NCBI GenBank assembly: GCA_964574995.1
Contig: CAZNPF010000004.1
Span: 34,694-98,693, forward strand
DNA length: 64,000 bases
Source: an uncultured Pseudomonadales bacterium
GTDB lineage: Bacteria > Pseudomonadota > Gammaproteobacteria > Pseudomonadales > JADFDG01
Direction: 5' to 3'
This document shows positions 4,896 through 64,000 of this stretch, one piece after another (within the stretch, counting starts at the first letter, position 1; every line of letters starts with the position of its first letter). The translations under genes were made by a program, and so were the position numbers. Under the pieces are notes generated by a model. It was not told where the DNA came from and did not search any database. It saw only the letters and a list, made by a program, of their open reading frames with translations.

Positions 4896-5033
4896 GTCGG
4901 AACGATAAGGGCGTGGCAGGAAATAATCGAGGCAAAGATAAACCGGATAGACGACGCTGACGCCTTGCCCCACCATACGCGCGCCGCAGGTTTATTGCGG
5001 CAGCATGGGCCACGGGGGGCCGCGCCAGCACAT

Positions 5034-20682: not shown

Positions 20683-20720
20683 AAGGTCAGCTCGGGCGTC
20701 CTGCGGGCGGTTATCCGGTG

Positions 20721-20754
20721 AAAAACGGGCACATCAACGCCGCCCGGTGCGGGC
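20721..20754 (-). terminator. possible weak terminator or attenuator with two mutually exclusive hairpins
   Basis: The minus-strand transcript reads GCCCG-CAC-CGGGC-GGCGUUGAUGU-GCCCG-UUUUU. The central CGGGC can pair with either flanking GCCCG, and the second hairpin is followed by U5. It lies between the GGDEF-EAL stop (20774) and the gspE start (20682). Confidence 0.3.
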
Positions 20755-20773
20755 AGGAGTCTAATGGACCCGC

Positions 20774-22909: not shown

Positions 22910-22921
22910 GGCGGACTCCGA

Positions 22922-24085: not shown

Positions 24086-24089
24086 TGCT

Positions 24090-24668: not shown

Positions 24669-24682
24669 TACCTAAACTTGCC

Positions 24683-25198: not shown

Positions 25199-25207
25199 GG
25201 CGGTAAC

Positions 25208-26065: not shown

Positions 26066-26069
26066 TGGC

Positions 26070-38670: not shown

Positions 38671-38674
38671 GGAA

Positions 38675-40012: not shown

Positions 40013-40013
40013 A

Positions 40014-42400: not shown

Positions 42401-42420
42401 AGTTGCATATCCCGGTTAAT

Positions 42421-42510
42421 TCAATTCTCGTTCAAGTCGGGGTTCATGTCGGCGTCTTTAGGTTCTGCCCGGAAGTTGTTGTTTTTACGAGCTGCCGATG
42501 TGCGAATCAT
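42421..42510 (-). CDS. candidate 29-codon ORF (MIRTSAARKNNNFRAEPKDADMNPDLNEN) at the head of the TolC/MFP/M50 operon
   Basis: ATG at 42510 with GGAGG (42525..42521) 10 nt upstream. The stop lies 20 nt before the TolC start. I translated it by hand from the DNA. No homology is known to me. Confidence 0.3.
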   Translation of the reverse strand: MIRTSAARKNNNFRAEPKDADMNPDLNEN

Positions 42511-42562
42511 TATCCACGCGCCTCCCAAGAAGGTAAACCGACGGAGCCGCCATCGTGCAAAG

Positions 42563-42590
42563 AAAAAGCCCGCTAAAAAGCGGGCTTTTT
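42563..42590 (-). terminator. rho-independent terminator after the giant gene
   Basis: AAAAAGCCCGC-TAAAAA-GCGGGCTTTTT, 18 nt beyond the giant-protein stop. Confidence 0.85.
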
Positions 42591-42607
42591 CAACACACGT
42601 CAACGGT

Positions 42608-45600
42608 TCACGCTACGTTCTGGAAGTGACGCAGCAAGGCGTCCATATCGGCACGACGATCCAAGACCTCGCGAGTGAGCGTCGCCGACAGACCCAACTT
42701 ACCGACAGGCACTGTTGCATCAGCCGCCGCAGACGCCGCTTGGTCAGCTGCCGCAGGCTCAGCCGCTGCGGCATGCTCAGCTTCAGCCATCTCGACCATG
42801 CCATCCAATGCCAACTGCGCAACTTTGTCGGCTTGCGCGCCGGTATTCGCCAGCGCCGGCATTTCTACAGACGGTAAGGCCAGTGCTTCACCATTGATGA
42901 AACTGCTTTCCACCAAAGCGAATCGCTCTTCTTCGTCATCCAGCACCGGCACTGTGAACTGGCCGTTGACATAGACGCGCAACGTAGCACTACCCACCGA
43001 ACCATCTGCGTACTGAACGCTGTAGAAGAACGTGTCGACATACACCGAACCCAGCGGCAAGCGTGTCAGTGCGGCACCTGGCGTGTACACCACAGATCCG
43101 TTTGCATCGAGCGATAGACTGCCGCCATTGCCAACCCCACTAACACCGGTCACGGCCGTAACGCCTACGTCGTTGCCAGTCAGTGCAATCGTTGTTGGCG
43201 ACATGCCACGCACCACGGCGACATCATCCACGGCGATGTTGCTGGGCACGCCGCCCGGATAATTGACATACACGGTCGCGATCGACGTGTTGCCGAGACT
43301 GTCGATCACCTCATACGAGAAACGATCCAGCGATGCATCTGATGTTGCGGTGTAACTGATCGTGCCATCGGGATTGAGCGCAGCCGTGCCGTGCGTTCCC
43401 GTCGTCACCAAACGCAGCACGCGCAGCGTGCCACCTTCAGGATCAACGTCATTGGCGAGCACATTGACGTTGGCCGTGGCATTAGCCGCCACACTGACGC
43501 CATCGGCAAACGCAACCGGCGCATCATCCACACCGACGACCGTGACAGTCAGCATTGCGGTAGATACGTTGCCCGTTTTGTCGCGCACCGTGTACACCAG
43601 CGTGTCTGTCGCGGTTTCGCCTGCGCGCAGATAATCAAACGCACTGCCGGGCACGTAACTGATCGTGCCATCGGCATTGATCATCGCACTGCCGCGCGCG
43701 GCTGAATCGTCAATGCTCACCACCGTGAACGTGTCTGCGCCATCACGATCCACATCGTTGGCGCGTACATCAACCACGGCAACCGCATTGGATTTCACCG
43801 CGACAGCATCATCCACTGCGATGACGGGATCATCGGTTCCCGTGATGACCAGCGTGACCATGCCACTGCTGGTTTGGCCATTGCTGCTGGTCAGCGTGTA
43901 GTGGAACGTTTCGGAAACGCTTTCACCGGCGACCAAGTAATCAAACTTGCCGCGCGGATCGTAGACCAACGTTGAGCCGTTGTTATACAGACGTCCCTGT
44001 ACACCATCCGTTGCCAGCGACTGAATCGACAACGTGTTGACCGTATTCGGATTGGTGTCGTTGGCCAGCACATCCAAACGAGTCGGTGCCGTAGACGATA
44101 CCGAGAAGACATCGTTGCCCGCTTCGGCCAAGCGATCCATGCCGTGCACCGTCACCGTCACCGTCGTCGAGTAGGTGATGCCGCCCTGCTCAGTCAGATA
44201 CGTGAAGGAATCGGTAGCCGTCTGCCCTGCGCCCAACGTTTTGAATGCGGCGCCTGGCGTGTAAACCATGCGGCCATCCGTTGCAAAAGAAATGCTGCCT
44301 TGTGTGCCGGTGGTATCGAGTGCCACGACATCCATTTCATCCGCAGGCAAGAAGAACGATTCTGCCGATGTGGTTTCCGCCGACAGCACGGTGCTGTAGT
44401 TGCCTTGCGTCAGCAAGTTGGCCCAGTAGACGGCGCCGTCATTGAGCTGACCACCCGTATCACGCCAACGCGCACCAATGATGGCGCGTGTATCCGCAAC
44501 TGCCACGGAGCTACCGAAGAATTCTGACGTACCTACAGAGCCACCTTGCGGTGCATTGCTATAGAACTTTTCTGGCAACCAACTGCCCGCCACATGCTTG
44601 TACGCATACGCCGCGCCGGAGTAGAGACCGTTGGTATCTTCAAATTGCGCACCCACCAACAAGCGCGTACCGCCCGTGCCCTCATCGTAATCAACGGCAA
44701 CATCACTGCCGTAATAATCACTGGCCGTCGTATCGAATGATGTCAGTTTGGATTCTAATCGCCAGGTGCCATTGCCGAGGCCACCGTTATTTTCAGCACC
44801 ACTTTGCTGGCTGACGGAACGCCAGATATATACCGCGCCACCATCTGTCGCGGCACCATCGTTAAACACCGACGACGCCACGATGATGCCACCCTGACGG
44901 GCCGTGCCCCCGATCGTGTAAATATCGAGATCCAGTGCCCAGCCCAGCATGTCACCGGATTTTCCATCTGGCGCATACAACTTGGCCACTTGCTTGAGGC
45001 CTTGGTCGGTCGAGAAAACGTAGATGCTGCCCGTGTCACCGTAGTTGGAATCCGGTGCATCTTCGCCGCTGTAGATGTTGCGGATTTCAGACTGACTCAA
45101 CGCGCGGTTGTAAACGCGGAAATCATCGATGTAATCCGCAAAGCGTTGCGTACCACTTTGATAATTACCCACTGCAATGATGTCGTCAGTGGCCAAGAAG
45201 TTGGACACACCCACTTTCACGCCATCGATGTAGTAGAACGTGCGCGCATTGACACCCGTGCCATCGGCTACGGCCGTCACCATGTGCCAGCCCGTTTTTT
45301 GTGCGGCCGTCAGTGCGTAATTGCTGTTGGCTGCAGCGATGCGCGTGGCGGTCATCGCACGGCCAGTCGCGCTGAGATTGTTATAACCATACGCATTATT
45401 GAACTGCACGACATAGGTGTCAGCGCCACTGGCACCATCGACGTTGGTCGTCACCGTGACAGCACCCGCACCCATCAGCGTATTCAGCGCATTCTGAATA
45501 TTGGTGGCTTGCGTTGCACCGGTATCACTGTAGGTAATACTGGCCGTCGTACCGACGCCTGGCACCGAGAGTGTGAAGTTAGTGTTGCCAGTAAATGCCA

Positions 45601-48600
45601 ACAATTGCGCTTCACGCGAAGCCGACACACCAGCACGGCTGGACGCCATCACGTCAAAATTGATGGCGGAATTATTAAAGGTAATCCGCAGCACATCACT
45701 ACGCGCCGCCTCCGTGACTACCGTGACCGTTGCCGTACCCAGGCCTTGCGTTGCCAGTAATGTGTTCAGCGCTGCTTGGACGCTGGCCGCCACCGTGGTG
45801 CCGGTTACGTTGTGAGTAATTGCAGCAGTCGTACCCAGACCCGGAATCGTCAACGTAAATGTAGTGACTGTTGCGCTATCGATGACCAGCAATTGCTGCT
45901 CGTAGACGTTGGCGGGGTTGAAGCCCGGCACACCCAGCGCCGTGTTGTTCCAAGCGCCCAGATCGTCAGTACCGGCATTGACGATGATCTGATGGTTGTC
46001 ACCACTGCCAAAGCTGCCACGCGTCAGCGTGTTGTACGCGGCATCTGTTAGCAAATCTTTATACCAAGACGAAATTGTCCACGTCTGTCCTAGATCGATG
46101 GCGCTATCCATCGTGAGCACGCCATTGGTTCCCGCCATGTACAGCACATTGCCGCGCTGACCGTCGTAGAAGAACTGTGCATCGGTCGACAGGGTACCGC
46201 CCACACTTCCAAATTGAGCAGGCGCGTAAGAACCCGTGCCGTCGAATTCGATGCGCGACACCATGCCTTGTGAGTTGTCGTCACGCGCAGAAGCAACAGC
46301 CAAGATGTTTTCGTCAAACGATACGCTGCTGCCGAACAGATCAAAATCCGCCGGATCTTTAGGAATGACGTTGGCCGTCAACGATCCATTGGCCCCTGGG
46401 AACGCCGCGAAAAATGCCGCGCCAGAATCCGTGAAACTGCCGTAATCAAAATGACTCGCACCGACCAAGATAACAGTGCCAGCCTCGTTGATGGCAACCG
46501 ATGAACCGAAGTGATCATCCGGATTGTTCGCATTAGCGGTCAACTTGTAGAACGTCGCGAATGAACTCCCGCTCCGGTCGTAGCAGTACACGGCACCGCG
46601 CCCGCCATTCTCGCTGCGCGCACCCACAATCAGTTTGTCGCCGTCGTTGCTCCAGTCGAGGCTGTAGCCAAATTGAGCGCCGTTACCCGCAGGTGCCGTC
46701 GGTGCAAGCCCCGTGATGTAGGTCCAACCTGAACCGTTCCATTGATAGATCCAAGCTGCGCCAGGAGACGAACTATCACCGGGCGCACCCACTGCAAGCC
46801 AGTTGCCGTCTTCAGAAATGGCTGAAGCAAAACCAAAGTTGGCATTGTTGATGGGGCCATCCAGAACGGGGGCCAGCGTTTTTTCTGATGGGTTGACGAT
46901 GGTCAGTAAAAAGTCATCGAAAACCGTGGCCGGACCACCACGCGATGCAGCGGCATTGTCATTGGCGGTTACGCGAACGGAAATCGCGCCCACATCACCG
47001 GCCGCCGGCGTGCCGGAGAACGTGCGCGAAACAGAATCAAAACTCAACCACGCAGGCAAGGCGCCACCACCGCTCAACGTCGCGGTGTACGTCACGTTGT
47101 CGAACGGTGCCGGGTCGGGATCCGCAAAGGCTGTCGATGGCACCGTGAAGCCATACTGATAACCGGCAAGCGCCACTTGATCGGACAGCGGTGCAGCTAC
47201 GAAAGGTGCGTTATTGGCACTATCCACGCGAATCACAAACGTGCGTGTACCACTCACTGCGCTGTAGGGATCGGTCACTCGTACCGTGACGCTGTAATCA
47301 CCTGCAGCCGTGCCTGCTGGAATCGTGACCCGCAGCAAGGTGCCATCCGCCACGGCACTCCAGCCGCCCGGCAAAGCCGTTGCGCTCGGAATCAAGCCGT
47401 TGATGTCTGCCGAGTCGGTATCCGTGAAATACGCGCTGAAATCGTATGCGTTGGTCGAGCCGGATTGCTGATACGCATAGGGAGACAGCGGAACCAGTGC
47501 TGTCGTAAAGGGCGCATCGTTGGCGCCGTTGATCGTCACCGTCAGCAGTTGGTTGGTTGAACCGCCCTGCCCGTCGCTGACAGTCACGCTGAATGTATCG
47601 GTGGTTGATTGGCCGACTGCAAGCGATTGCAGATATGAAGATGTGGTCGGGTTATAGGTGATATTTCCTGAACCCAGCGTAATCGTGGCGCCCACGCTGC
47701 TGGTACCCACCGCCGTCACCGACAGCACATCACCAAATATCCCATATTGAGTGATGTTGTAATCCGAATCGTTGGCCAAGATGCTGGCACCGGTAATAAC
47801 GACAGACGTGTCTTCGTTCGTTACACCGAGCACATCGTCTGCGGCATTAGGATCCCAATTGAAGTGATACGACGCGGCTCTGGTGCCGTTGGCCGTCAAT
47901 GCATCCAATGACCAGTTGTAACCATTCTGCAATGTGCTGGCCGTAATGAGGTTATTCGATGCTTTGATTTGTGGCTGGTTGGTATTCGCGTTGAATACCA
48001 CGAGGAACGTATCGACTGCGCCATCTACCGAGCACGTTACCGTGACCGCGCCGGCACCCACCACCGCATTGATTGCCGCCTGAATATTGGCGGCCATCGT
48101 CGCTCCCGTCGCGCTGTATGTAATGTCAGCGGTATCTGGGAAGCCCGGAATGCTTATCGTAAATGTGGTGTCAGGAGAAATATCGGGAATGATCAGTTGT
48201 TGCTGCTCATAGGCACCGGCCGGGCCATTACGCCACAGCGCAACGGCGACTTCCTGCACCGTATTAATCAACTGACCACTGCCCCATGTGCCATCGGGCT
48301 GCATTTCAGCCACGTAGGTGTACGGGTTGCCGCTGATCGTTCCGCTATACAACAGGAAAGCGCTATTGGTGTTATCGCCGTTAGCCGTTTGATCCAAGTC
48401 ATTGACCATGACCACCGCGCCACCGGCACCGAATAATCCACCCAGCGCGCTCCAACTCGTGCTACCGGCATCCAGTTTGTACGTTTGAATACCACCGCTG
48501 TTGGCGACCACCATGTAGTCGTCATCCATCGAGATATCGTTATTGCCGGCGCTGTCCCACGAGAACTGATTGGTGTAAGTCGCATAATTGACAATGCCGA

Positions 48601-50158
48601 CGCCGGGCGCATCGTAGGTGCGCAGTTCCGTACCCGCCGGCCGGCCATCACCGCCTACGGCATACCACCAGTTGGCATTGTCTTGATCGTAACCAACCGC
48701 CACGACACCACCGAAGCGGTAGGCGTCTTCCCCGCCTGTCGGTGTTTGGTTTTCAATTTGGATGATGTTGGTCCAACCCGTGGTGTCCACACCGAAATTA
48801 CCGTGCGCGGTCGCCGACAACACGAACGCAACGCCGACGTCATCACGTTCGTAGCGAGTGACTGAACTGCCACCCCAGGCGCCATCTTTGTCATCGTTGT
48901 CGTACTGCCACCAGTCTTCGTAGGGGTTACCCATAATCAGGCGGTAGTTGCCGGCACCGTCATGAGCGATGTCTACGCTGTAGCCAAACTGATCCGCCGT
49001 CGCGCGATAGTCGTTGACATCAGTGCTGCCACCATTGAATCCCGTGCGGCCGGAGTAACGGGCATTGAACTGCGCAATGGTTTGCGGCGCAGTCGTCCAG
49101 TTGGTGCCGTTCCACGTATACACGTACACCCGGCCATCACTGCCGCCGGCGTTATTGTAAGTAGGCGCACCCACCACCAGTTTGTTGCCGGCGGCGGCGA
49201 TGTCAAAACCAAAGCCACCACTGCCATCACCGGTGACGGTCGCATTTAACGCCCAAACGCCAGTGGTGGCGTTACGCTGATAAATATCCACTTTGTTGGA
49301 CCCGGAAGTTCCAACAAATTTCCAGTCTTTGTTGTCGGTGGTACGGGTAATGGCAACAGCCGATGTGCCCGCAGAAATTTCCGTATCTTGCACCCATCCA
49401 TCGGCGAGCAAGCCAAGGAAATCATTGCCAGCGCCCCCCGCAAACAGCGACCGATTCGATACATCACCGATGCTGCGTTCCAGATCCCAGTCGCCGCCCA
49501 AACTGGCCACGCCCGTCAGATCCGACGATGCCGCCACATCCGCACCAGTTTTTTCGGCGAGCGCCTCGATGAATTGCTGCCCGCTTTCTCCGGCAGCCAC
49601 ATCACAACCGTAGATCAGCAAATCGCCTTCCGGCGACAAGGCTTGCCGCATCGCGGCCCACGCACGCTCATTTTTATCCAAGCTGGTGATGCTGACGGAT
49701 TCGCCACCTAACGATAAATGCCCGGCACCGCCGTGACTCACTAAGTGAATGGCATCAACGTCACCTTCGCGACGGCCCAATACAGATTGGATCTGCGACG
49801 CCCAGTCGCTGCCTTGAAGGACGTGGACTTCTACGCTTGGCCCGATATTGCGGATCAACGATTCAAAATCGCTCACACCCGCATCGACAAAAAGAATTTC
49901 TCGGCTACCACCCGCAGCTGACAGAGGGCTGACAACAACATCGCCCAAAAAGGCTGCAGCAAGCGCATGCCCATCCTGCGCATTTACCACTGCATCAGCG
50001 GATGCCGTGGCCAGAACTTTCTCGGCCGTCTCAACGGCGGCTGCATCGAGCAATACGCGCTGCTCCAGAGCAAGGAAGCGGCTCAATGCTTGCTTGGAAG
50101 ACACCGCAGATTGGCCAATAGGTTGCTGACCACCCTTACGGGAATTGTCCTTGCTCAT
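42608..50158 (-). CDS. 2516-aa adhesin-like giant protein: DUF4347-like N-terminal domain, FG-GAP-like beta-propeller repeats, cadherin/VCBS-like and He_PIG-like Ig domains, LamG-like domain
   Basis: N-terminal LEQRVLLDAAAV followed by ILFVDAGV...HLVSHGGAGHLSLGG...IYGCDVAAG...GDWDLE (nt 49481..49903). FG-GAP-like FGYS/FGSS...VGA repeats. ANDxD...TDTF..Y.V.D...V.V.G.DDAP modules. LamG-like ...DDFRVYNRALSQSEIRNIY. Confidence 0.85.
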   Translation of the reverse strand: MSKDNSRKGGQQPIGQSAVSSKQALSRFLALEQRVLLDAAAVETAEKVLATASADAVVNAQDGHALAAAFLGDVVVSPLSAAGGSREILFVDAGVSDFESLIRNIGPSVEVHVLQGSDWASQIQSVLGRREGDVDAIHLVSHGGAGHLSLGGESVSITSLDKNERAWAAMRQALSPEGDLLIYGCDVAAGESGQQFIEALAEKTGADVAASSDLTGVASLGGDWDLERSIGDVSNRSLFAGGAGNDFLGLLADGWVQDTEISAGTSAVAITRTTDNKDWKFVGTSGSNKVDIYQRNATTGVWALNATVTGDGSGGFGFDIAAAGNKLVVGAPTYNNAGGSDGRVYVYTWNGTNWTTAPQTIAQFNARYSGRTGFNGGSTDVNDYRATADQFGYSVDIAHDGAGNYRLIMGNPYEDWWQYDNDDKDGAWGGSSVTRYERDDVGVAFVLSATAHGNFGVDTTGWTNIIQIENQTPTGGEDAYRFGGVVAVGYDQDNANWWYAVGGDGRPAGTELRTYDAPGVGIVNYATYTNQFSWDSAGNNDISMDDDYMVVANSGGIQTYKLDAGSTSWSALGGLFGAGGAVVMVNDLDQTANGDNTNSAFLLYSGTISGNPYTYVAEMQPDGTWGSGQLINTVQEVAVALWRNGPAGAYEQQQLIIPDISPDTTFTISIPGFPDTADITYSATGATMAANIQAAINAVVGAGAVTVTCSVDGAVDTFLVVFNANTNQPQIKASNNLITASTLQNGYNWSLDALTANGTRAASYHFNWDPNAADDVLGVTNEDTSVVITGASILANDSDYNITQYGIFGDVLSVTAVGTSSVGATITLGSGNITYNPTTSSYLQSLAVGQSTTDTFSVTVSDGQGGSTNQLLTVTINGANDAPFTTALVPLSPYAYQQSGSTNAYDFSAYFTDTDSADINGLIPSATALPGGWSAVADGTLLRVTIPAGTAAGDYSVTVRVTDPYSAVSGTRTFVIRVDSANNAPFVAAPLSDQVALAGYQYGFTVPSTAFADPDPAPFDNVTYTATLSGGGALPAWLSFDSVSRTFSGTPAAGDVGAISVRVTANDNAAASRGGPATVFDDFLLTIVNPSEKTLAPVLDGPINNANFGFASAISEDGNWLAVGAPGDSSSPGAAWIYQWNGSGWTYITGLAPTAPAGNGAQFGYSLDWSNDGDKLIVGARSENGGRGAVYCYDRSGSSFATFYKLTANANNPDDHFGSSVAINEAGTVILVGASHFDYGSFTDSGAAFFAAFPGANGSLTANVIPKDPADFDLFGSSVSFDENILAVASARDDNSQGMVSRIEFDGTGSYAPAQFGSVGGTLSTDAQFFYDGQRGNVLYMAGTNGVLTMDSAIDLGQTWTISSWYKDLLTDAAYNTLTRGSFGSGDNHQIIVNAGTDDLGAWNNTALGVPGFNPANVYEQQLLVIDSATVTTFTLTIPGLGTTAAITHNVTGTTVAASVQAALNTLLATQGLGTATVTVVTEAARSDVLRITFNNSAINFDVMASSRAGVSASREAQLLAFTGNTNFTLSVPGVGTTASITYSDTGATQATNIQNALNTLMGAGAVTVTTNVDGASGADTYVVQFNNAYGYNNLSATGRAMTATRIAAANSNYALTAAQKTGWHMVTAVADGTGVNARTFYYIDGVKVGVSNFLATDDIIAVGNYQSGTQRFADYIDDFRVYNRALSQSEIRNIYSGEDAPDSNYGDTGSIYVFSTDQGLKQVAKLYAPDGKSGDMLGWALDLDIYTIGGTARQGGIIVASSVFNDGAATDGGAVYIWRSVSQQSGAENNGGLGNGTWRLESKLTSFDTTASDYYGSDVAVDYDEGTGGTRLLVGAQFEDTNGLYSGAAYAYKHVAGSWLPEKFYSNAPQGGSVGTSEFFGSSVAVADTRAIIGARWRDTGGQLNDGAVYWANLLTQGNYSTVLSAETTSAESFFLPADEMDVVALDTTGTQGSISFATDGRMVYTPGAAFKTLGAGQTATDSFTYLTEQGGITYSTTVTVTVHGMDRLAEAGNDVFSVSSTAPTRLDVLANDTNPNTVNTLSIQSLATDGVQGRLYNNGSTLVYDPRGKFDYLVAGESVSETFHYTLTSSNGQTSSGMVTLVITGTDDPVIAVDDAVAVKSNAVAVVDVRANDVDRDGADTFTVVSIDDSAARGSAMINADGTISYVPGSAFDYLRAGETATDTLVYTVRDKTGNVSTAMLTVTVVGVDDAPVAFADGVSVAANATANVNVLANDVDPEGGTLRVLRLVTTGTHGTAALNPDGTISYTATSDASLDRFSYEVIDSLGNTSIATVYVNYPGGVPSNIAVDDVAVVRGMSPTTIALTGNDVGVTAVTGVSGVGNGGSLSLDANGSVVYTPGAALTRLPLGSVYVDTFFYSVQYADGSVGSATLRVYVNGQFTVPVLDDEEERFALVESSFINGEALALPSVEMPALANTGAQADKVAQLALDGMVEMAEAEHAAAAEPAAADQAASAAADATVPVGKLGLSATLTREVLDRRADMDALLRHFQNVA
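45362..45613 (-). repeat. copy 3 of the ~85-aa module (EAQLLAFTGNTNFTLSVPGVGTTASITYSDTGATQATNIQNALNTLMGAGAVTVT...)
   Basis: Lies directly after copy 2 and has the same motif order. Confidence 0.8.
45638..45904 (-). repeat. copy 2 of the ~85-aa module (YEQQLLVIDS...TFTLTIPGLGTTAAITHNVTGTTVAASVQAALNTLLATQGLGTATVTVV...)
   Basis: Same motif order as copy 1. Confidence 0.8.
47951..48211 (-). repeat. copy 1 of an ~85-aa intragenic module (YEQQQLIIPD...TFTISIPGFPDTADITYSATGATMAANIQAAINAVVGAGAVTVT...)
   Basis: Aligned by eye with the two copies below. Coordinates were derived from the DNA and are in frame with the start at 50158. Confidence 0.8.
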
Positions 50159-50364: not shown

Positions 50365-51171
50365 ATGACTATGCCCCGCCGAAGCTTGGCGAGCGCTGTT
50401 CTCGGCATGATTGACCAGCACGGCTCACCAGAAGAGCGGCGGCTCGCCTCTACCAATCAGGACGCCCTGAAAGCTTTTCTCGATCATCCTGACTGTCAAC
50501 CGCGGCCGGGCAGCAACACGCTCGACATTGGGCTGGAAAATCGGCTAACCCTAAAATTCAACCTCATTGCCAATAAACGGCGTTCCCCCTGGGGAATGAT
50601 CGAGCAGATCGGAAATTACTCCCCAGCACTAAGGGCGACTGCCGACGAAGTCATACGTCACCGGATACGCTGCCATGCAGGCATCAAAATTACCCCAGCC
50701 AGTGCCGAGTTCGAGCTATACCCCTACGAAACCCATGAAGGCCCCCTCGCCAGCCAGCTAGGTATCCAAGCGGATTTCACCCAAACCGGCTTACCAGCGA
50801 CGCCGTACTGTTATGGCCTGTCATCCGACGACACTTTGAGTGCTTACGCTCAACTGGAGTCGGTCTCCGCCTCAGAACTTGAGCAGGCCGTTGGCTTTCC
50901 ATTGCCTGCTGCAAACCTTAAAACGCTCGCACTCTTTCACAGCAAACGCAGTCCAGATGGGCGCTGGACTCCCAGCAAAGCCGGAATCGAGTTCCTCCCT
51001 TTTCCATCTCACCTGTTAAACAACGTCCTAACGCACTTCCAGTTGAATTTTGCCTATCTAATTCACCGAGGCGGCTTTAGGCCGTACGGCGTCATTGGAT
51101 CGCAAGGGTCACGACAAGTGCTTTACACAACACTTCTACCCACTATCCGCCCCACTCGGTCCGACTTATGA
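50365..51171 (+). CDS. hypothetical protein (268 aa), no recognisable motif
   Basis: Long ORF whose stop overlaps the next start (ATGA at 51168). Confidence 0.6.
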   Translation: MTMPRRSLASAVLGMIDQHGSPEERRLASTNQDALKAFLDHPDCQPRPGSNTLDIGLENRLTLKFNLIANKRRSPWGMIEQIGNYSPALRATADEVIRHRIRCHAGIKITPASAEFELYPYETHEGPLASQLGIQADFTQTGLPATPYCYGLSSDDTLSAYAQLESVSASELEQAVGFPLPAANLKTLALFHSKRSPDGRWTPSKAGIEFLPFPSHLLNNVLTHFQLNFAYLIHRGGFRPYGVIGSQGSRQVLYTTLLPTIRPTRSDL

Positions 51172-52079
51172 ATCCCATCATGACGGCCATCTCACGTGGC
51201 CTTGCCAGGCCCACGCAAATTCTGCCCGGAGAGTACGGCGCCCGCTTCGTTCGTCGGCTCTATGATGAAGCCGCTCGCGAACTTGAACCCACAGAAAATA
51301 GACGTTTTCACTGGGTTAGATCGGCCGTGGCCGCCGCCATCGATGCTGCAAATCGAGGCAATCAGAAGGATGCCGATACGTGGATCGCACTGGCGCAAAG
51401 GGTATTGTCCACGCAAAAAGATGCGGCGCAGATATTCTCCTTTAGTTGCATTCAAGCCGCCGATGCTTACGTGCTTTATGCGCGGAACCAATATGAATTA
51501 GCCATTGAGCGAATCCATTCTGCCGATCAAATGGATAAAAAACTTTCAGAAAAACAATTTCCTGTAGTACGTGCACAGCGCCTGCATTACAAGCATCTAA
51601 TTTCAAGAATATTGTATGCGCAGCATAAGCATACCGAAGCGATCACATTGCTGACCGATACACTGCGAGAAGCCGGGGATCTTGCCGCATCCAACTATTG
51701 CCATCCCGAACTCTTGAGTTATGCCTGCTCTCGTATCGTTGGCGAATTAGCCATTATTGCCGGCGGCGGCATCCCAATAAATTTGTATATGGATATGACC
51801 CAATCAATCCAAAACGCAACGAACAATGAAGGTAGCGTGGCGGAATATCTTCTTTATCGAGATTCTCTTTTTGAATTCAGAGAAACAAAAAGCACAAACC
51901 AGCTTCTTTCAATCGTCAGCGACGGCCGTATGAAAACTATTTGCTGGTACGCTGCCGTTACCGATCTTGTCACCGATCTCGATTTAGAGGGCCGCTGCCA
52001 AGTTGCACTTGCGGCCAGCGAATGGCGCGACATGCCCGCAGCATTGCGTGGCCGACTGCTAAATCAGCTCACGCCGTAG
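51168..52079 (+). CDS. hypothetical all-helical (TPR-like?) protein (303 aa)
   Basis: ORF translationally coupled to the previous gene. It is visibly more AT-rich and uses rarer codons (tta, ata, aaa runs) than its neighbours. Confidence 0.55.
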   Translation: MNPIMTAISRGLARPTQILPGEYGARFVRRLYDEAARELEPTENRRFHWVRSAVAAAIDAANRGNQKDADTWIALAQRVLSTQKDAAQIFSFSCIQAADAYVLYARNQYELAIERIHSADQMDKKLSEKQFPVVRAQRLHYKHLISRILYAQHKHTEAITLLTDTLREAGDLAASNYCHPELLSYACSRIVGELAIIAGGGIPINLYMDMTQSIQNATNNEGSVAEYLLYRDSLFEFRETKSTNQLLSIVSDGRMKTICWYAAVTDLVTDLDLEGRCQVALAASEWRDMPAALRGRLLNQLTP

Positions 52080-56904: not shown

Positions 56905-57726
56905 ATGCCAAAGCGTTATGCCTACTTTGTATCTGACGGCACCGGCCTGACTGCCGAAGCATTAGGACAAAGCCTGATCAGCCAGTTTGACCAAGTGGAG
57001 TTTGTCCAAGTCACTCTGCCCTTCATCGACAGCGTGGACAAAGCCCGAGACGCCGTTTCTCGCATCAACAAGAGCCGCGAAGACAGTGACGACCGCCCTC
57101 TCGTCTTCGACACCATCGTCGATCGCGCCGTGCGCACCGAGTTAGCCCGAGCCGACGCCTTCTTTGTCGACATCTTCGGCACGTTTCTCAACCCACTAGA
57201 AAGCGAGCTCAAGGCGGATTCTTCCTACCGCGTCGGCAAGTCCCACGCCATCAGCGACCGCAAAGCCTACAAGACGCGCATCGATGCCGTGCAGTTCGCC
57301 CTCGATAACGACGACGGTGCGCGCATCCGCCACTACGACCAAGCAGACATCCTGCTGATTGGGGTCTCTCGTTCTGGTAAAACGCCCACCAGCCTCTACT
57401 TGGCACTTCAGTACGGCTTACGGGCCGCCAACTACCCGCTCACCGAGGACGACCTCGACGGTGAAGGGCTACCCAAGAACATCAAACCGTGGAAAGCCAA
57501 GATGTTTGGCCTGCTGGTAGACCCCGACCGGCTGGCGGCCATCCGTAACGAGCGTATGCCGGGCAGCCGGTATGCCTCTATCCACCAATGCCAGCTGGAG
57601 GTTCGGGCTGCCGAGCTCATCTATAAGCGGGAGAACATTCCCTTTTTGGATGTGACGGAACTGTCCATCGAGGAGATTTCCAGCCGGATCCTCGCCGCCA
57701 CAAACATCCAGCGAAAGATCAACTGA
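56905..57726 (+). CDS. ppsR: PEP synthase regulatory protein (bifunctional kinase/pyrophosphorylase, DUF299)
   Basis: P-loop GVSRSGKTPTSLYLA. It is divergent from ppsA, which is the canonical arrangement. Confidence 0.9.
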   Translation: MPKRYAYFVSDGTGLTAEALGQSLISQFDQVEFVQVTLPFIDSVDKARDAVSRINKSREDSDDRPLVFDTIVDRAVRTELARADAFFVDIFGTFLNPLESELKADSSYRVGKSHAISDRKAYKTRIDAVQFALDNDDGARIRHYDQADILLIGVSRSGKTPTSLYLALQYGLRAANYPLTEDDLDGEGLPKNIKPWKAKMFGLLVDPDRLAAIRNERMPGSRYASIHQCQLEVRAAELIYKRENIPFLDVTELSIEEISSRILAATNIQRKIN

Positions 57727-57750
57727 CCAATCACTCAGCAGCCGCTCAAC

Positions 57751-57790
57751 CCCCGGCGAGGACCGCCCAGCCCTTACGGCCTCCCCGGGG
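57751..57790 (+). other. GC-rich imperfect hairpin downstream of ppsR (no U-tract)
   Basis: CCCCGGCGAGG-N18-CCTCCCCGGGG, which gives 10 bp with one mismatch. Confidence 0.3.
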
Positions 57791-58099
57791 TGTCACAGCC
57801 CACATTGCTCACACCCAAGCCCTTGATTCCAAAGGCCTGCCGGCTGTTGCATTTTTGTAACCCACCACTCCCTCACATTCCCCTTACCGTGCCCAACCGC
57901 TACCATCCGGATGTCGGATTACTCCCGTTATTTCACGGAGTTACAGGCAAATAGCCGGTCCGAATACAAGAACAAAAACAAACACGTTGCGCGCCGTCTG
58001 CAAGTGCACATCGAGCAGACGACGTAACAGAACAAAAAAACAGAACAGCGACGGATGATGGCAGTGCCTCGAATCCATTCAGCAAATTTCCTGCAACGC

Positions 58100-59989
58100 A
58101 TGGCGTGCATTTCGCGTTATGCGTTCTCTTGTCTGTTCGCTTCCCTGCTCATGCTGTCAGCAGCGAGCGCGTATGCCTCGCTGACCGAACTCGACGACAG
58201 CGAAATGACTGGCGTCACGGGTGAGGGTTTGACGTTTACGTGGACCAACTTCCGGATGATGTTTGATCCGAGCAGTTATCTGGAACAAGCAGGCTCACCC
58301 AACGGCAACACCTGTACATCTACTGGCAATACAGCGGGCAATTACAGTTGCTGGCGCCGCGCTGATTTGCGTTGGTATGGCGGCAACGCATCATCACTGG
58401 GCACCACCGTAGGTCAAGCCGTTACTGCGGGCCCGTGGAATACCACGTGGGATAACTCGCAGTGCACGGTTGCCGGTATTCGTGGTCTCGGTTGCCCACG
58501 CGGCGGCCCCATCGCCATTTTTGCCGCGCACGACAACCCGTACATTCTTCGCGTTCAACCCTTTGCAGGTGACGGCACGGCCGCCACCGCAATCGGCAAC
58601 GGTGTTGTGACTTATCAAGGCAACAACGGTACCGGTGATTGGAACAGTGGTTTGGGCAGCGGCTCGCGGCAAACGGCCCTCGAGTGGATTGCGCCAACTG
58701 CACAAGATCAATATCGCGTGTCGTTCTGGGGTGAAGCCGAAGTCGGTCGCGGTGGTTCGGGTGGCGGCCTGCTGCAGAGCCAAACCATTTTGCAAGGCAA
58801 CGCATCCGGCAGCTTGTTGCGTTTCTTTAAATTTACGCAGACCAGCACGTCTCCAGGTTTGCAGTCAGCGTTCGACCCAATGCTCGGTGCTGCTGGTTGT
58901 ACCAACGCAGGTTGTGCCAACGTCGATGGTGCCGGATCGGCGTACAACAACCGCACACTGGCCATTCAATATTCGAGCCGCTTACGCGCTGATTTCCGAT
59001 TTAGCGTCGCGCAGGCCAATGCCATCCCCAACATCGGAACGCCCACCATTTTCGAGGCCAACGAAGGCATCTACTACTTGAACGCCGATGTTTATTTTCC
59101 GCTGGGCCAACCCTTCTATCAGGCGCTGACGCTCAACTTGCCGCGCAACACCGTAACCAACGCGCCGATTCAAGACGGTAACTTCACGCTAGAAATTCCG
59201 TTACTGCCCAACCGCACGGCCGTATTTACCCGCTTCTACAGTTTGATCACCGGTGGTACTGCCACATCGGTACCTAGTGCTTGGGATGGTGGTTATGCCA
59301 CGTTGCTCTCCGCCATGTTGCGCTCGGAAGCGCTGACTGACGACGCCATCAACTACATGCCAGATGCCGATGTCACCACGGCACCCTTCCCAACCAACTA
59401 TCCGGCACCAGACGCCAACTGGTACAAAACGCACGGTTTCGCGCACTGGGGTGACTGGCACCCCTGCACGTCCCGTAACTGCATTTTCCCTAACGCAACG
59501 AATACGGTTGCGCAGGCGGATGGTACCGGCGTCAACGTCACTTATTCAGATGGCAGCGTGCGCTCCGTTACCGGGCGCAACTCGTGGCGCTCCAACGGCG
59601 ATGGCGTGTTCTTTAAAAACATCGCGTCTTATAACGCGTACTCCTATCGCCCATGGGCTGTTGACGTACGCGCGCCCGGCGTCGCCAATGACAACCAATT
59701 CACGCAGATCAGTTACATGTCGAACTACGCGGCGTGTACGGCGGGCACCGCTGTCAACTGCGGCTATGGCGGCTATTACAGAGGCGCTGCCGATTTTGGC
59801 AACCCCGTCTCTTCGCAAAATATCGTGGCACCAGAAATGTCGTGGTATAGCGATACCGGCATGGGCGGTGCTGTTGCGCGCAACGTGATCGTCGTGCCGG
59901 CAAACGGCACGCTGAATCTGGGCGATGCGCGTATCGAAGGCATCCAGCTCAACTACTTGCGGTTCACCAGTTTCGGGGCGAATTTCTAA
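58100..59989 (+). CDS. secreted paralogue A (629 aa) of an uncharacterised family
   Basis: Signal peptide MACISRYAFSCLFASLLMLSAASAYA, then SLTELDDSEMTGVTGEGL. The C-terminus reads ...IQLNYLRFTSFGANF. The track ORF starts at 58055 and the ATG at 58100 is confirmed. Confidence 0.75.
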   Translation: MACISRYAFSCLFASLLMLSAASAYASLTELDDSEMTGVTGEGLTFTWTNFRMMFDPSSYLEQAGSPNGNTCTSTGNTAGNYSCWRRADLRWYGGNASSLGTTVGQAVTAGPWNTTWDNSQCTVAGIRGLGCPRGGPIAIFAAHDNPYILRVQPFAGDGTAATAIGNGVVTYQGNNGTGDWNSGLGSGSRQTALEWIAPTAQDQYRVSFWGEAEVGRGGSGGGLLQSQTILQGNASGSLLRFFKFTQTSTSPGLQSAFDPMLGAAGCTNAGCANVDGAGSAYNNRTLAIQYSSRLRADFRFSVAQANAIPNIGTPTIFEANEGIYYLNADVYFPLGQPFYQALTLNLPRNTVTNAPIQDGNFTLEIPLLPNRTAVFTRFYSLITGGTATSVPSAWDGGYATLLSAMLRSEALTDDAINYMPDADVTTAPFPTNYPAPDANWYKTHGFAHWGDWHPCTSRNCIFPNATNTVAQADGTGVNVTYSDGSVRSVTGRNSWRSNGDGVFFKNIASYNAYSYRPWAVDVRAPGVANDNQFTQISYMSNYAACTAGTAVNCGYGGYYRGAADFGNPVSSQNIVAPEMSWYSDTGMGGAVARNVIVVPANGTLNLGDARIEGIQLNYLRFTSFGANF

Positions 59990-59990
59990 T

Positions 59991-60725
59991 ATGAAAATTT
60001 CGCGCACACTTCCCCTGATTTTTCTTGCCGGCTTGCTGCCAACCATGGCGGCCGCCGTCATCAATGACATGCAGCCGCTCAGTGAAGAAGCCATGAGCGG
60101 CATTTCTGGTCAGCAAGGTGTTGCGCTCAACATCGAACTTCGCATCAACATGAAAGAAGACGGGCAGCCCGTCGATCCTTCCGAGTGCCCGAACGTCGGC
60201 GCACTCACAGGCGGCAGCAGCTGCCGCCTTGGCTTGATGCTTTCTGATTTGCCCGGTGCCTGGATCACCCTCAAGGGTTTTCGTGGCATGAATAAATTCA
60301 CCAACATTCGTTTGGATGCGTCGACGTTTGGTGGCAATTCGATACATCGCGACATCACCACCTACATGGGCGGCTATAACCCGAACAACAAACCCGCCAT
60401 TGCGGTAACTGCCGGTAACTGGGCGACCGCTTGCACACCGTTGGCCACTGCGGCTTGCAACACCTATCTCAATACCCCGTTGTATTTGGACTACATCACC
60501 GGACTGAGCTTGGAGCGCTTGTCTGCCGAATTCGATCTCGGCGCCACACCCGGCTACATGCGTGATGCTGTCGCCGGTGCGCCTATTTCGCTGCGGCTTG
60601 CGCACGGCAACAGCCTAGTGCCAGATCCAAACAACCCACCCAACGTGATCTTTGGCCCGTACGGCAACGAGCCGGCCAAGATTCGTCTGGATGGGCAATT
60701 CCAATTGCATGGCTTCGGCTATTGA
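59991..60725 (+). CDS. secreted paralogue B (244 aa)
   Basis: The start lies 1 nt after the gene A stop. Signal peptide MKISRTLPLIFLAGLLPTMAAA, then VINDMQPLSEEAMSGISGQQGVALNIEL. The C-terminus reads ...GQFQLHGFGY. Confidence 0.8.
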   Translation: MKISRTLPLIFLAGLLPTMAAAVINDMQPLSEEAMSGISGQQGVALNIELRINMKEDGQPVDPSECPNVGALTGGSSCRLGLMLSDLPGAWITLKGFRGMNKFTNIRLDASTFGGNSIHRDITTYMGGYNPNNKPAIAVTAGNWATACTPLATAACNTYLNTPLYLDYITGLSLERLSAEFDLGATPGYMRDAVAGAPISLRLAHGNSLVPDPNNPPNVIFGPYGNEPAKIRLDGQFQLHGFGY

Positions 60726-60768
60726 GGCATCAGATATGTCTGGATATCCGGATAGAGGAATACTGCGG

Positions 60769-62112
60769 ATGAATCACATTTTTCATCGTCGATCACCTTC
60801 CGCCCTCTGGCGCACATTCTTTGCTGCGTTGCTGGTCGCCCTTTATGCGTCACCGTCAACAGCATCCATGGTGGCCATGGATGAAACCGAACTGGAAAAC
60901 GTCTCCGGTCAGGGTCTGTTCTGGTCTGACAAAATCACCGGTAGCGAATTGGCCGGCAGCAACGCCTACTCCACACCGTTTACGTTCTATCGCATGGGCC
61001 TTGATGGCGAATTGGCACTCAACGCCAACTTGGGCAAAATGCAACTTGGTTGTGGTGGCGTCAACGATTTCATCAACGCACCTGCCGCTTGTGATATCGA
61101 CATCGATTACGCGAGTTTGATGGGCCGTAACGGTACCAACCCCGGCAACCCGCTCAGTTCATTCAAACTGACACGCCCCTATCTCGAGTTAGCCATCAAA
61201 AATGATGGGACGGCCAACCGCGAGATCGTCGGCCTCAAGATCGGTGCGCAAGCAGCGGACGGCGCGATCACGTCCGGTCGTCGCTATACGGTTAATGGTG
61301 CCGTCAACCAAGAAAACTCGCTGGGTTGGAGCGAGCCCACAAACGCCAACACACAGCCTGTACGTACGGCCGGCGCTAACTGCAACACCGGCGCGTCAGT
61401 TAATTCAGGCGTGTTGGGTTGCCACTCAGGCATCAACTCGGTGAGCGGATTCCTCGGCGCCGAAATGTCGATCTCCTTGCGTGTACAGGGTCGCGTCTGC
61501 GTCTTTATTTGCATCGGTCTCGATGCCTGGGGTTGCACCGGCCGTACCACCTTTGGCGGCGACAATTGCGGTACTGCCAAGGGCGACGCTCTGTTTGTCG
61601 ATATGGGCGGTACACGTATGCAGGGTCTGGGCTTGCGCTCCGCATTGCTGAACTTGAATGACGGTGGTGTTCTCACCAGCATCATCACGGAAGGCTATGC
61701 CTCACTGAATCTCGACTTACGATTGGTGCATAAGCTCACCTTCGATAACGGCGGTGATTTTGGTATTTCTTTCCAACGTGAGCCGGTGGCTTACCCGCGC
61801 TACAGCAAGATGACCCCCACCGCAGAAATGACTGCCAACGGCACCTATCCAAGCGCCATGGATGCGTGCGCCACAGCCAACTACGACACCACGCGTTGCG
61901 CTAGCGCCTACGCCGTGCCCACCAACACCGGTTGGTGGCTCAATGCACCACAAGTCAAATTGCTGGATGTCATCAACCCGTCCATCAACGTGGGTGACTT
62001 GAGTTTGGGCGATGCGCTGGCGCTGTTCGGTGCGCCAGGTTTGGTGGTGAACCAAGGTGAATTCAATATGACGCCGTACAAGAACTGCTACGGCGCAGCG
62101 CGCTTCTGCTGA
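60769..62112 (+). CDS. secreted paralogue C (447 aa), Cys-rich
   Basis: AGGA lies 9 nt upstream of the ATG at 60769, with an alternative ATG at 60736. Signal peptide ...ALWRTFFAALLVALYASPSTAS, then MVAMDETELENVSGQGLFW. Confidence 0.75.
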   Translation: MNHIFHRRSPSALWRTFFAALLVALYASPSTASMVAMDETELENVSGQGLFWSDKITGSELAGSNAYSTPFTFYRMGLDGELALNANLGKMQLGCGGVNDFINAPAACDIDIDYASLMGRNGTNPGNPLSSFKLTRPYLELAIKNDGTANREIVGLKIGAQAADGAITSGRRYTVNGAVNQENSLGWSEPTNANTQPVRTAGANCNTGASVNSGVLGCHSGINSVSGFLGAEMSISLRVQGRVCVFICIGLDAWGCTGRTTFGGDNCGTAKGDALFVDMGGTRMQGLGLRSALLNLNDGGVLTSIITEGYASLNLDLRLVHKLTFDNGGDFGISFQREPVAYPRYSKMTPTAEMTANGTYPSAMDACATANYDTTRCASAYAVPTNTGWWLNAPQVKLLDVINPSINVGDLSLGDALALFGAPGLVVNQGEFNMTPYKNCYGAARFC

Positions 62113-62137
62113 TCCCATGAAACGGAACACAGTTCGT

Positions 62138-64000
62138 ATGACAACCAATCATTTGCGACCCGCTCATCGAAACCTGCATCGCTTGATGCTGGCGAGTGCG
62201 CTGGTCTCTGTTTCTGCTTGGGCAAGCGCCGCCATGCAATCGTTGACTGAAGGTGAAATGTCTTCGGTGAATGGCCAAGCCGGTGTCGAAATCAATCTGG
62301 AATCAGCCGGTGTGTCCCTTGGCGGTTTCCGTCTCTCGTCCGATAACACCAACACCGTGACAGCGCTGGGTGATCCTTGCACCGGCGGCAATTGCGGTGG
62401 CATTTGGGCCAGCGGCCTTTACATGACACCTGTGGGTGCTGCGCAAGGTACCGGCTACATAAAACTGGACACCGGTGCCGACAGCAACACCGCCATTCCG
62501 TGGTTTTCTTATCAACTGCACCTCGACACGCTCAGAACGGGTGGTGCCGGCACCAACACCGGGTATGCCATCGGCGGCGTCGGCAGCACCACACGAGACA
62601 TCGGCCAAGTTGCGCTGATCATGCCACTGGATTTCAGCTTTGCCGGTCAGCCGTTCTATGGCCTGCCGAATGGCAATGTGGACGTCAATCTGCAAATCAA
62701 CAATGGTGCCCTGTTCTATCGTCAATTGGGCCCCGGGCACTCGCAGATTGCGGGTAGAAATGTTTACTTCCAGTGGTCGTCGCCCACCGACATTGCCGAC
62801 TACACGGTGGAAGGCTTTCGCATGTCGGGGCCAGCGTCGTACTTTCGCGTTGCTTTCAACGGCTACTACAAATTCCACGCCGATCAAGATATGGCGACCT
62901 TCACCGCCAATGACCGCCCCGGCATGAGTTTCAGTTGGGGCGGGCAACTCTATGACACGCTGCTCTTTAATCGCGGCGGCGGCCTCTGGAACACAACCAT
63001 CACGCAGGCCACCAATGTGGCATTCAATGCGGCAGGCACCGCCACAACGAACCTACCCACCGTCGCGCAAGGTCTGACGCAAGGATTGAATCTGGGTTTA
63101 CGTTGGAACTATCGCAATCCATTGACTCCCGCTGTTCCTGGCAATTTCCTGTGGAGTATCGGCCACCCGGAAGGTGACCAAGAAAACGTACAGTTCGGCG
63201 ACTGGCAGAATCTGCAACAAGCCACCGGTGCTGTGCCCAACCGTTATGGTTTTGATATTCCGATGATGGTCATCGATGCGGTTGCCGCACCGACTGCGAC
63301 GAACGCGGCAGGCAGTCTGTGCTGGGGCAACACGATGACGGGTGCGGCATGTAGCCCCGATGTCGACGGCAACAGCAACGGCGTATTCACCGATGTGCAC
63401 TATGACAACAAAGGCACACTGCTCACGTTGCGCGCCGGCACGATCGAGGGCTATCCCGCGCCATTGAGCAGCATCAACACACCAACTGCCGTGACCGCCA
63501 TTCGTAACGGCAATCTTTTGGCTTGGTCCAATCAAGTCACGATGTTGACTGGCGGCCCGAGCGGCACATTGGATTACCCAGCTCAATCTTGGGGATTGAC
63601 ATACACCCTGCCCAACATCAACTCCAACGTCTATACCTACGCCGGCGGCAACGAAGATGACACCGCCGGTGGCAGCCGCAACCACGGCTTGATCCTTGAC
63701 CTGCTGACCATGACGCAAAGTTATGGCCAATGGCAGTCGAACTACACGATTGCTGCTGGCGGTACTTGTGACCCCGTTTCAGGTGCTGGCTGCGTCAACA
63801 CCACACGTTGGAGCCAAGGCGGTCACATCATGATTGCCGATACCGCTGCGCAAATGGGTATCGGCTTTTTGGGTGGTAGCGCGCTGATCGCTATCGACGA
63901 TATGCGCTTGTGGATCAAGGACACCACGCTCGGCCAGGTGTATCCAAACAACCTCACAGGCGGTATTGATCTGTTTTCGCCGCGCACACGCATCAACATT
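62138..64000 (+). CDS. secreted paralogue D, at least 621 codons, open at the right edge of the window
   Basis: Not in the supplied track. I translated it by hand from the ATG at 62138 (alternative in-frame ATG at 62117) to 64000 and saw no stop. Signal peptide ...HRLMLASALVSVSAWASAA, then MQSLTEGEMSSVNGQAGVEINLE. Confidence 0.8.
   Translation, partial: MTTNHLRPAHRNLHRLMLASALVSVSAWASAAMQSLTEGEMSSVNGQAGVEINLESAGVSLGGFRLSSDNTNTVTALGDPCTGGNCGGIWASGLYMTPVGAAQGTGYIKLDTGADSNTAIPWFSYQLHLDTLRTGGAGTNTGYAIGGVGSTTRDIGQVALIMPLDFSFAGQPFYGLPNGNVDVNLQINNGALFYRQLGPGHSQIAGRNVYFQWSSPTDIADYTVEGFRMSGPASYFRVAFNGYYKFHADQDMATFTANDRPGMSFSWGGQLYDTLLFNRGGGLWNTTITQATNVAFNAAGTATTNLPTVAQGLTQGLNLGLRWNYRNPLTPAVPGNFLWSIGHPEGDQENVQFGDWQNLQQATGAVPNRYGFDIPMMVIDAVAAPTATNAAGSLCWGNTMTGAACSPDVDGNSNGVFTDVHYDNKGTLLTLRAGTIEGYPAPLSSINTPTAVTAIRNGNLLAWSNQVTMLTGGPSGTLDYPAQSWGLTYTLPNINSNVYTYAGGNEDDTAGGSRNHGLILDLLTMTQSYGQWQSNYTIAAGGTCDPVSGAGCVNTTRWSQGGHIMIADTAAQMGIGFLGGSALIAIDDMRLWIKDTTLGQVYPNNLTGGIDLFSPRTRINI

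Follow-up and report, generated by a model that had tools for sequence, protein, structure and literature searches.

Four unrelated secreted proteins with a FilA-type leader as candidate cargo of the Fil pathway in an uncultured Pseudomonadales bacterium

Near one end of a 64,000-nucleotide stretch of DNA from an uncultured Pseudomonadales bacterium (contig CAZNPF010000004.1; hereafter the window), four tightly packed, co-directional open reading frames (ORFs), A, B, C and D, occupy the plus strand from 58.0 to 64.0 kb, as seen in the ORF list and its translations. Each appears to encode a secreted protein in which a signal peptide is followed by the same short acidic motif, which raises the question of what this motif does on all four proteins and which machine might read it. 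Our answer, to which we assign a probability of about 0.58, is that A-D are additional cargo of the Fil pathway, a Fap-like route that would take them through Sec export, leader cleavage by FilB and export by FilC.

The ORFs bear out the layout described in the original prediction, which was made from this DNA alone: four back-to-back plus-strand genes with gaps of 1 nt (A/B), 43 nt (B/C) and 25 nt (C/D).

58055 or 58100 to 59989, plus strand: gene A, an ORF of 629 amino acids from the ATG at 58100 or 644 amino acids from the ATG at 58055
59991 to 60725, plus strand: gene B, an ORF of 244 amino acids; a small subunit family whose alignment has the conserved C-terminus RLDGRLQIHGFGF
60769 to 62112, plus strand: gene C, an ORF of 447 amino acids
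62138 to 64000 (window edge), plus strand: gene D, the first 621 of 843 amino acids; last gene of the module

In the databases D (P0001) runs to 843 amino acids and agrees with the window's D at all 621 residues, which would put the end of the gene some 669 bases outside the window, near 64669. The cluster had been expected to continue from there; instead, the genes after D in eight related loci (loci are numbered L001 onwards) are unrelated or convergent, and the module consists of exactly four genes. Their order, A-B-C-D, is the same in all eight loci long enough to display it (L001, L002, L004, L005, L008, L010, L011 and L012), which suggests that the four proteins work together as one assembly. 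Each gene has orthologues of its own, with identities of 41-70% across the four: 46-59% for A, which is always the first gene of the module, 51-64% for C, and 41-62% among the 22 homologues of D, while none of the 19 homologues of B carries a name.

All four N-termini open with positive charges (the n-region), continue with a hydrophobic core and reach a small-x-small site, which is AYA in A, AAA in B, TAS in C and SAA in D. Signal peptides were called with a heuristic of our own, in which the core is a run of 10 residues with a mean Kyte-Doolittle value above 2.2, and the motif was followed with a hidden Markov model (HMM) built from 62 distinct orthologous leaders. Together they confirm that a predicted Sec-type signal peptide in A-D is directly followed by the FilA-type motif, which starts 0-7 residues after the predicted cleavage site.

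58100 to 58177, plus strand: Sec-type signal peptide of A, MACISRYAFSCLFASLLMLSAASAYA, with hydrophobic core and AYA site; longer if translation starts at 58055
58178 to 58231, plus strand: Fil-type (DUF6160), double-glycine-like leader of A, SLTELDDSEMTGVTGEGL; DUF6160 21.9 bits, motif HMM E 9.7e-7
59991 to 60056, plus strand: signal peptide of B, MKISRTLPLIFLAGLLPTMAAA, from ORF and heuristic
60057 to 60122, plus strand: leader of B, VINDMQPLSEEAMSGISGQQGV; DUF6160 29.6 bits, motif HMM E 8e-10
60769 to 60867, plus strand: signal peptide of C, MNHIFHRRSPSALWRTFFAALLVALYASPSTAS, from ORF and heuristic
60868 to 60918, plus strand: leader of C, MVAMDETELENVSGQGL; DUF6160 15.1 bits, motif HMM E 3.1e-8
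62138 to 62233, plus strand: signal peptide of D, MTTNHLRPAHRNLHRLMLASALVSVSAWASAA, from translation and heuristic
62234 to 62287, plus strand: leader of D, MQSLTEGEMSSVNGQAGV; DUF6160 42.2 bits, FilA 26.7 bits over residues 14-121, motif HMM E 1.5e-9

The likeness to FilA/DUF6160 proteins that the original prediction pointed to proved correct for the leader. Pfam PF19657 (DUF6160) matches all four N-termini; against its gathering cut-off of 27 bits D and B are members, and A and C, which score under it, match the same profile columns (10-73 and 10-38). The NCBIfam FilA model NF050077, whose cut-off is 220 bits for the full-length protein, matches D at 26.7 bits and B at 11.7 bits, in both cases confined to the N-terminal region, and gives no match to A or C. 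Judged by these profiles, none of A-D is FilA, and only their leader looks FilA-like. FilA itself, sampled from three fil operons, has this leader too (E 1e-6 to 6e-10 with the motif HMM), for example as AFA followed by AESLDDATLSGVTGQDGI. Among 6,034 ORFs searched, the HMM recovered A-D at E 1e-6 to 8e-10 and found no further match in the window or in 80 control loci (L013-L092); a loose regular expression run over all six frames of the window returned the four N-termini and one internal chance match in the GspE gene. No examined orthologue of the four proteins lacks the leader, which is present in 22 of 22 sequences of the D family (D and 21 aligned homologues).

Behind the leader the proteins have nothing in common. 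BLASTP similarity among A-D is confined to the first ~50 residues, and when family alignments cut after the leader were compared with hhalign, no pair among the mature parts of A, B, C, D and FilA exceeded a probability of 1.2%. Both results rule out the paralogy that had been proposed for A-D, since the leader alone is common to them. A sorting tag would be expected to recur in just this way, one leader on five unrelated protein families, and the pattern supports the idea, also put forward in the original prediction, that the common segment is recognised by a single machine; by this pattern, the DUF6160 segment would be a portable N-terminal address.

The mature parts are Gly/Asn/Thr-rich and Lys-poor. 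The Cys pairs noted at the outset are borne out: the Cys count is even in each protein and the pairs are closely spaced, 4-13 residues apart (in C, 10 of 12 Cys form five such pairs), a spacing compatible with the transport of an otherwise unfolded chain. The aromatic C-termini described for A and B are also there (F or Y); C ends in Cys and D in Gln. Outside the leader, A-D have no match in Pfam, NCBIfam or the Protein Data Bank (PDB), and PDB sequence searches with profiles of D, B, the A family, C and FilA found no relative. A single-sequence match of C to 9xfv, 'bacteria pilus (like)' (E 0.084), vanished with the family profile and was treated as noise. Self-BLAST of A-D revealed no internal repeats, amyloid-type repeats included; no NCBIfam model of a Fap subunit matches them, and the Asn/Gln-rich repeats of FapB, FapC and FapE are absent.

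What kind of peptidase might read this leader is suggested by its geometry. Across the 62 distinct leaders, the columns are M or L at -15, L at -12, D or E at -10 to -8 and L or M at -7, followed in the C-terminal half by V or I at -4, G or A at -2 and Q or E at -1; column counts place the leader of gene A in this register as L-12, E-8, M-7, V-4, G-2 and E-1. The textbook consensus of double-glycine leaders is LSxxELxxIxGG. The Fil leader follows the register of that consensus (for which PMC5557850 cites Dirix 2004), hydrophobic at -4, -7, -12 and -15 and with Gly at -2, a resemblance of pattern for which homology is unproven. When 25-residue leader fragments were compared with ~43,700 Pfam and NCBIfam models, the only families matched beyond DUF6160/FilA were those of double-glycine leaders (TIGR03898, TIGR03949, ComC and Lactococcin; E 0.02-0.16), and this was also true of every other match to the fragment from C. 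Of the 88 leaders found in the wider A family, 40 carry GA, GG or GS, the canonical pairs, at -2/-1. Conversely, 16 classical GG leaders were scored with the Fil-leader HMM against 1,600 shuffles: nine lay above the 95th percentile and five above the 99th, with absolute scores that are low because the motif is short.

The fil operons of relatives supply a machine of the matching type. They encode two to four copies of FilA (DUF6160) together with FilB, FilC, FilD, FilE and FilF. FilB matches Pfam Peptidase_C39, its own model NF050078 (388 bits) and that of FapD (NF058616, 118.8 bits); FilC matches NF050079 (392 bits) and the FapF transporter model NF058560 (79.5 bits), both proteins scoring under the FapD and FapF equivalog cut-offs. 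FilB is a stand-alone C39 peptidase of 270-280 amino acids that keeps the signature motifs of the family, QAYDYSCGSAAL (QxxDxSCG), FKHFVV and VADPA, and its N-terminal hydrophobic anchor is consistent with a catalytic domain that would lie in the periplasm. FilD belongs to the OmpP1/FadL family and FilF is lipoprotein-like.

Whereas the A-D module is rare, FilD has more than 1,000 homologues, and a look-up of these showed that contigs with A-D also carry the fil operon. It lies 1-15 kb from A-D in five of the five contigs long enough to tell, as listed here with distances from FilF to the module taken from locus and contig coordinates.

L002: about 1 kb; same strand
L005: about 7 kb; convergent, with a prp operon between
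L001/L094: about 9 kb; convergent, with a prp operon between
L008/L096: about 14 kb; same strand, with a giant adhesin and a TolC-type operon between
L010/L093: about 15 kb; same strand, with a giant adhesin and a TolC-type operon between

Since the layouts of these five contigs differ, the link between fil and A-D persists through three arrangements. A trio of genes encoding a Zn-ribbon NUDIX protein (minus strand), a NUDIX protein and a hexapeptide-repeat protein recurs at L012 10851-12701 and L095 14984-16839; it follows D in the former and filF in the latter (Alkanindiges), so that one chromosomal slot holds A-D in one genome and the fil operon in another. In L094, from a relative syntenic with the window, a gene for a 929-residue Calx-beta protein (3020-5809) lies directly upstream of filA1.

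From these elements we propose the following pathway. A-D would first be exported by Sec and processed by signal peptidase. In the periplasm, the leader thus exposed would be recognised by FilB, the membrane-anchored, FapD-related C39 cysteine peptidase, which would probably cut at or just after the G/A(-2)-Q/E(-1) pair. The unfolded chain, holding short-range disulfides only, would then cross the outer membrane through FilC, the relative of FapF, and homology and gene linkage suggest FilD (FadL family), FilE and the lipoprotein FilF as helpers. Once outside, A-D would fold into beta-rich structures and may be built into Fil fibres or the biofilm matrix as accessory or alternative components.

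In this, A-D attach to a system that already has a name. The Fil pilus of Acinetobacter and other Moraxellaceae (filA-F; NF050077-NF050081, NF033645; DUF6160, FilE_C) has a subunit, FilA, whose address is identical to that of A-D; PMC11784438, citing Hori 2011, describes FilA for Acinetobacter sp. Tol 5 as a subunit of surface fibres. What sets A-D apart are mature domains unrelated to FilA and far larger (up to 843 versus ~280 amino acids), and a fixed four-gene module of their own, which is rare. Databases already have names for the leader and for the Fil system, and A-D are therefore not a new kind of system; of the original description of an undescribed surface or fibre system, what stands is that Fil is mechanistically uncharacterised. 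What appears to be new is the conserved module of four large, unrelated proteins with a Fil leader, the recognition of double-glycine geometry in that leader, and its pairing with a FapD-like periplasmic C39 peptidase and a FapF-like channel; we found no open paper linking DUF6160 or FilA to C39 or Fap.

The closest functional precedent is Fap. In Pseudomonas, FapD is a periplasmic C39 protease whose catalytic cysteine is needed for the secretion of FapC through FapF; no target of FapD has been identified, and canonical C39 sites are missing from Fap proteins (PMC5557850). Fil resembles Fap in its stand-alone C39 peptidase and channel (FapF being trimeric) and in substrates that pass through Sec first. 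It differs by the addition of FilD, FilE and FilF, by the lack of amyloid-type repeats in A-D and by a clear leader on every presumed substrate here. With the double-glycine systems of bacteriocins, microcins and quorum peptides, which are processed by the C39 domains of ABC exporters, the Fil leader shares the -15/-12/-7/-4 spacing, the acidic -8 and Gly at -2, and in both cases a modular leader sits on unrelated cargo, with a C39 peptidase encoded nearby (in the relatives, for A-D). In contrast to the classical arrangement, in which the leader forms the extreme N-terminus of a cytoplasmic precursor and the C39 peptidase is fused to an ABC transporter, the leader of A-D follows a Sec signal peptide and would meet its peptidase in the periplasm, FilB is not ABC-fused, the cargo consists of proteins of 240-840 amino acids rather than peptides, and -1 is Q or E. 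A third comparison, by analogy only, is with type IX secretion, where a C-terminal domain (CTD) serves as a portable tag on unrelated Sec-exported cargo, is cut off, and is handled with a FadL-family protein, PorV; FilD gives weak matches to the PorV family. The Fil tag, however, is N-terminal and ~18 amino acids long, not a C-terminal beta-sandwich domain, and the remaining machinery is unrelated.

There is, in turn, no support for the donor-strand (chaperone-usher) or sortase-type mechanism to which the common N-terminal segment had first been likened, and what the fil machine contains instead are a C39 peptidase and a channel resembling FapF. Pfam gives A-D no usher, chaperone or fimbrial match, and the gene tables of L001-L003, L010-L012 and L093-L096 (precomputed Pfam) hold none of these either. 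The partner machine is, as observed at the outset, not visible in the window.

Several points weigh against assigning A-D to the Fil pathway. Known C39 peptidases accept G, A or S at -1. This position is E in A, Q in B, C and D, and Q or E in FilA, and to our knowledge no cleavage site of a periplasmic C39 peptidase has ever been mapped. The short similarity between leaders could also be convergent, reflecting an amphipathic helix followed by Gly. As to linkage, the short contigs L004, L011 and L012 have no fil genes within reach, and the 64-kb window itself has none, so that for this genome the linkage rests on synteny with relatives. The window and L001 share the gene order ppsA-ppsR-A-B-C-D, and in L001 the fil operon starts about 9 kb past D. 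The window also contains, at 50365-52079 on the plus strand, two genes for proteins of 268 and 303 amino acids that match no Pfam or NCBIfam model and are 52% and 30% identical to a pair that L093 has between filF and its giant adhesin. Taken together, these two correspondences make a fil operon just outside the window likely, at an expected ~9 kb beyond D. The homology of the gene pair further suggests a rearrangement breakpoint near 52.07 kb, at which the fil operon and the adhesin island of this genome would have been parted.

Two further points count against cargo status, and each leads to an alternative. The first is structural. An AlphaFold 2 model of D (predicted local distance difference test (pLDDT) 72, predicted template-modelling score (pTM) 0.74) is all-beta, with antiparallel strands of 15-22 residues, and the best, non-significant Foldseek matches of this model in the PDB are outer-membrane barrels (TonB-dependent receptors, LptD and BamA). 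A-D might then be beta-barrels inserted by the beta-barrel assembly machinery (BAM), or subunits of an outer-membrane complex, and thus structural parts of Fil and not its cargo; the aromatic C-termini of A and B and the Gly/Asn/Thr-rich, Lys-poor composition would fit. The Foldseek values for D (best E 0.013, TM-score at most 0.12) nevertheless amount to no real match, C and D end in Cys and Gln, and multiple Cys pairs are unusual in barrel proteins. Moreover, the leader is common to FilA, which is recovered from surface fibres, and canonical fil operons work without A-D. We therefore regard the barrel explanation as unlikely. (A model of B, from an alignment of 19 sequences, reached a pLDDT of 39; it was unusable and was set aside.)

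The second point is a neighbour. In L004, L008 and L010, a four-gene operon encoding a TolC-like OEP, a 270-residue adaptor, a 445-residue adaptor and an M50-adaptor fusion lies immediately upstream of A-D, on the same strand and across a gap of ~300 bp; the window has it on the minus strand at 36523-42400, 16 kb away. Its HExxH intramembrane protease-adaptor fusion could remove a signal anchor or the leader and pass A-D to the TolC-type duct, and the best matches of the M50 domain are proteases that mature the leaders of ribosomally synthesised and post-translationally modified peptides (daptide NF041824, 161.6 bits; YydH/LiaK). The M50-adaptor fusion is, however, widespread, with 202 metagenomic matches, and among the 80 of these kept as loci with the operon (L013-L092) not one contains an A-D homologue, FilD or a match to the leader HMM, which rules out any general coupling of this operon to the leader. 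It is not beside A-D in L001, L002, L005, L011 or L012, and FilA bears the same leader in operons without any TolC/adaptor/M50 system. A more likely partner is the giant DUF4347 adhesin, which the operon follows in the window, L013, L093 and L096 (a DUF4347 neighbour is found in 6 of the 80 kept loci). In the window, the adhesin island spans 36523-50158 on the minus strand and comprises a 2,516-residue adhesin (DUF4347, cadherin-like, FG-GAP and Big_9 domains), the TolC-like OEP, two periplasmic adaptors and a third adaptor fused to the M50/HExxH intramembrane protease; there is no ABC transporter among these five genes and no Fil leader on the adhesin. Export of A-D by the TolC-type system is, on this balance, quite improbable.

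That A-D are ordinary periplasmic or type II-secreted proteins, possibly enzymes, and the motif a helix with no role in sorting, is very improbable: the window does encode a type II secretion system (GspE at 19150-20682) and D has many invariant polar residues, as enzymes do, but A-D match nothing in Pfam, NCBIfam or the PDB beyond the leader, one leader sits on five unrelated families, and the module is persistently linked to an operon with a C39 peptidase. The dependence of A-D on this type II system that was raised in the original prediction is neither needed nor indicated.

The distribution of the families is uneven. Relatives of D, sought with its alignment, occur in 6 of 185,579 species-representative genomes (the same scan with the single D sequence gave no match), all of them metagenome-assembled genomes: Moraxellaceae, unclassified Pseudomonadota and one labelled Pedobacter, which is probably mis-binned. 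Word-indexed searches, run for B and D, likewise gave small families of 19-23 proteins each. The A family is far larger, with at least 106 representative clusters (P0163-P0268) in 1.84 billion proteins, mostly of 400-630 amino acids; 88 of the 106 have a recognisable leader, and DUF6160 is their sole Pfam match. In these A-like proteins, the leader runs on into a conserved block, G-x-G-[LI]-A-F-x-[LF]-[ED]-[DN]-F-R-x-x-M-A-P-T-S-Y-[IF]-E, and they probably occur without B, C and D.

Upstream of the module, one element may bear on its expression.

58026 to 58049, plus strand: A-rich tract of (AAN)n type, consensus GAAAACAACAAGAACGACAG, immediately before the first possible start of gene A; candidate translational control site

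The tract aligns upstream of gene A in L001, L002, L004, L008, L010 and L011, and we take it to resemble A-rich binding sites of the Hfq/Crc type. An inverted repeat (GGCAAGGGA...CCCCTTGC) precedes it in L002, L008 and L010. A 13-pair hairpin (AACGCATGGCGTG...CGCGTTATGCGTT) at 58095-58125 spans the second candidate start of gene A (58100) and could bear on the choice between 58055 and 58100, or on translation. An Rfam search of the region upstream of gene A gave no credible family, and a promoter scan of 57600-64000 returned nothing above shuffled expectation.

An AraC-family regulator adjoins A-D in three loci (L005 4798-5838, L011 7432-9751 and L012 1509-4302), in the last two accompanied by MPAB_Lcp_cat and FMN_bind genes, and is a candidate dedicated regulator of the module; in the window no AraC gene flanks it, and ppsR lies directly upstream of A. 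In L005, a gene for a 1,130-residue protein with a MauG-like di-haem domain of the His-Xaa-Ser-associated type (1399-4791) stands upstream of the AraC regulator and is probably unrelated to A-D. About 30-40 kb from the module, the window carries, besides the GspE ATPase, a response regulator with PAS, GGDEF and EAL domains (20774-22909) and a 1,244-residue hybrid histidine kinase with three receiver domains (26070-29804), so that 19150-29804 looks like a neighbourhood of surface and biofilm regulation.

A wider proposal, which we advance tentatively and hold to be possible at less than even odds, is that the DUF6160 leader is the recognition and cleavage signal of periplasmic C39 peptidases of the FapD/FilB type, and that Fil and Fap represent a general two-step secretion pathway. 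The Fil branch is a clean candidate here, as each presumed substrate has a leader of double-glycine geometry right behind its signal peptide. If the proposal is true, a Sec signal combined with a double-glycine leader address would route diverse large proteins over the outer membrane, much as the CTD does in type IX secretion. A-D, whose mature parts form four families without known fold or function, would then be the first multi-protein cargo module of the pathway, and its cargo would take in five unrelated families of 240-840 amino acids, including A-like proteins in at least 106 clusters. Fil and Fap machines would not be limited to one amyloid or pilin subunit but would act on a transferable tag borne by large unrelated proteins. 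FilF of Acinetobacter has been studied as a vaccine antigen, and such a pathway would have a bearing on the biology of biofilms and adhesion in Moraxellaceae, Acinetobacter included, and might provide a secretion tag.

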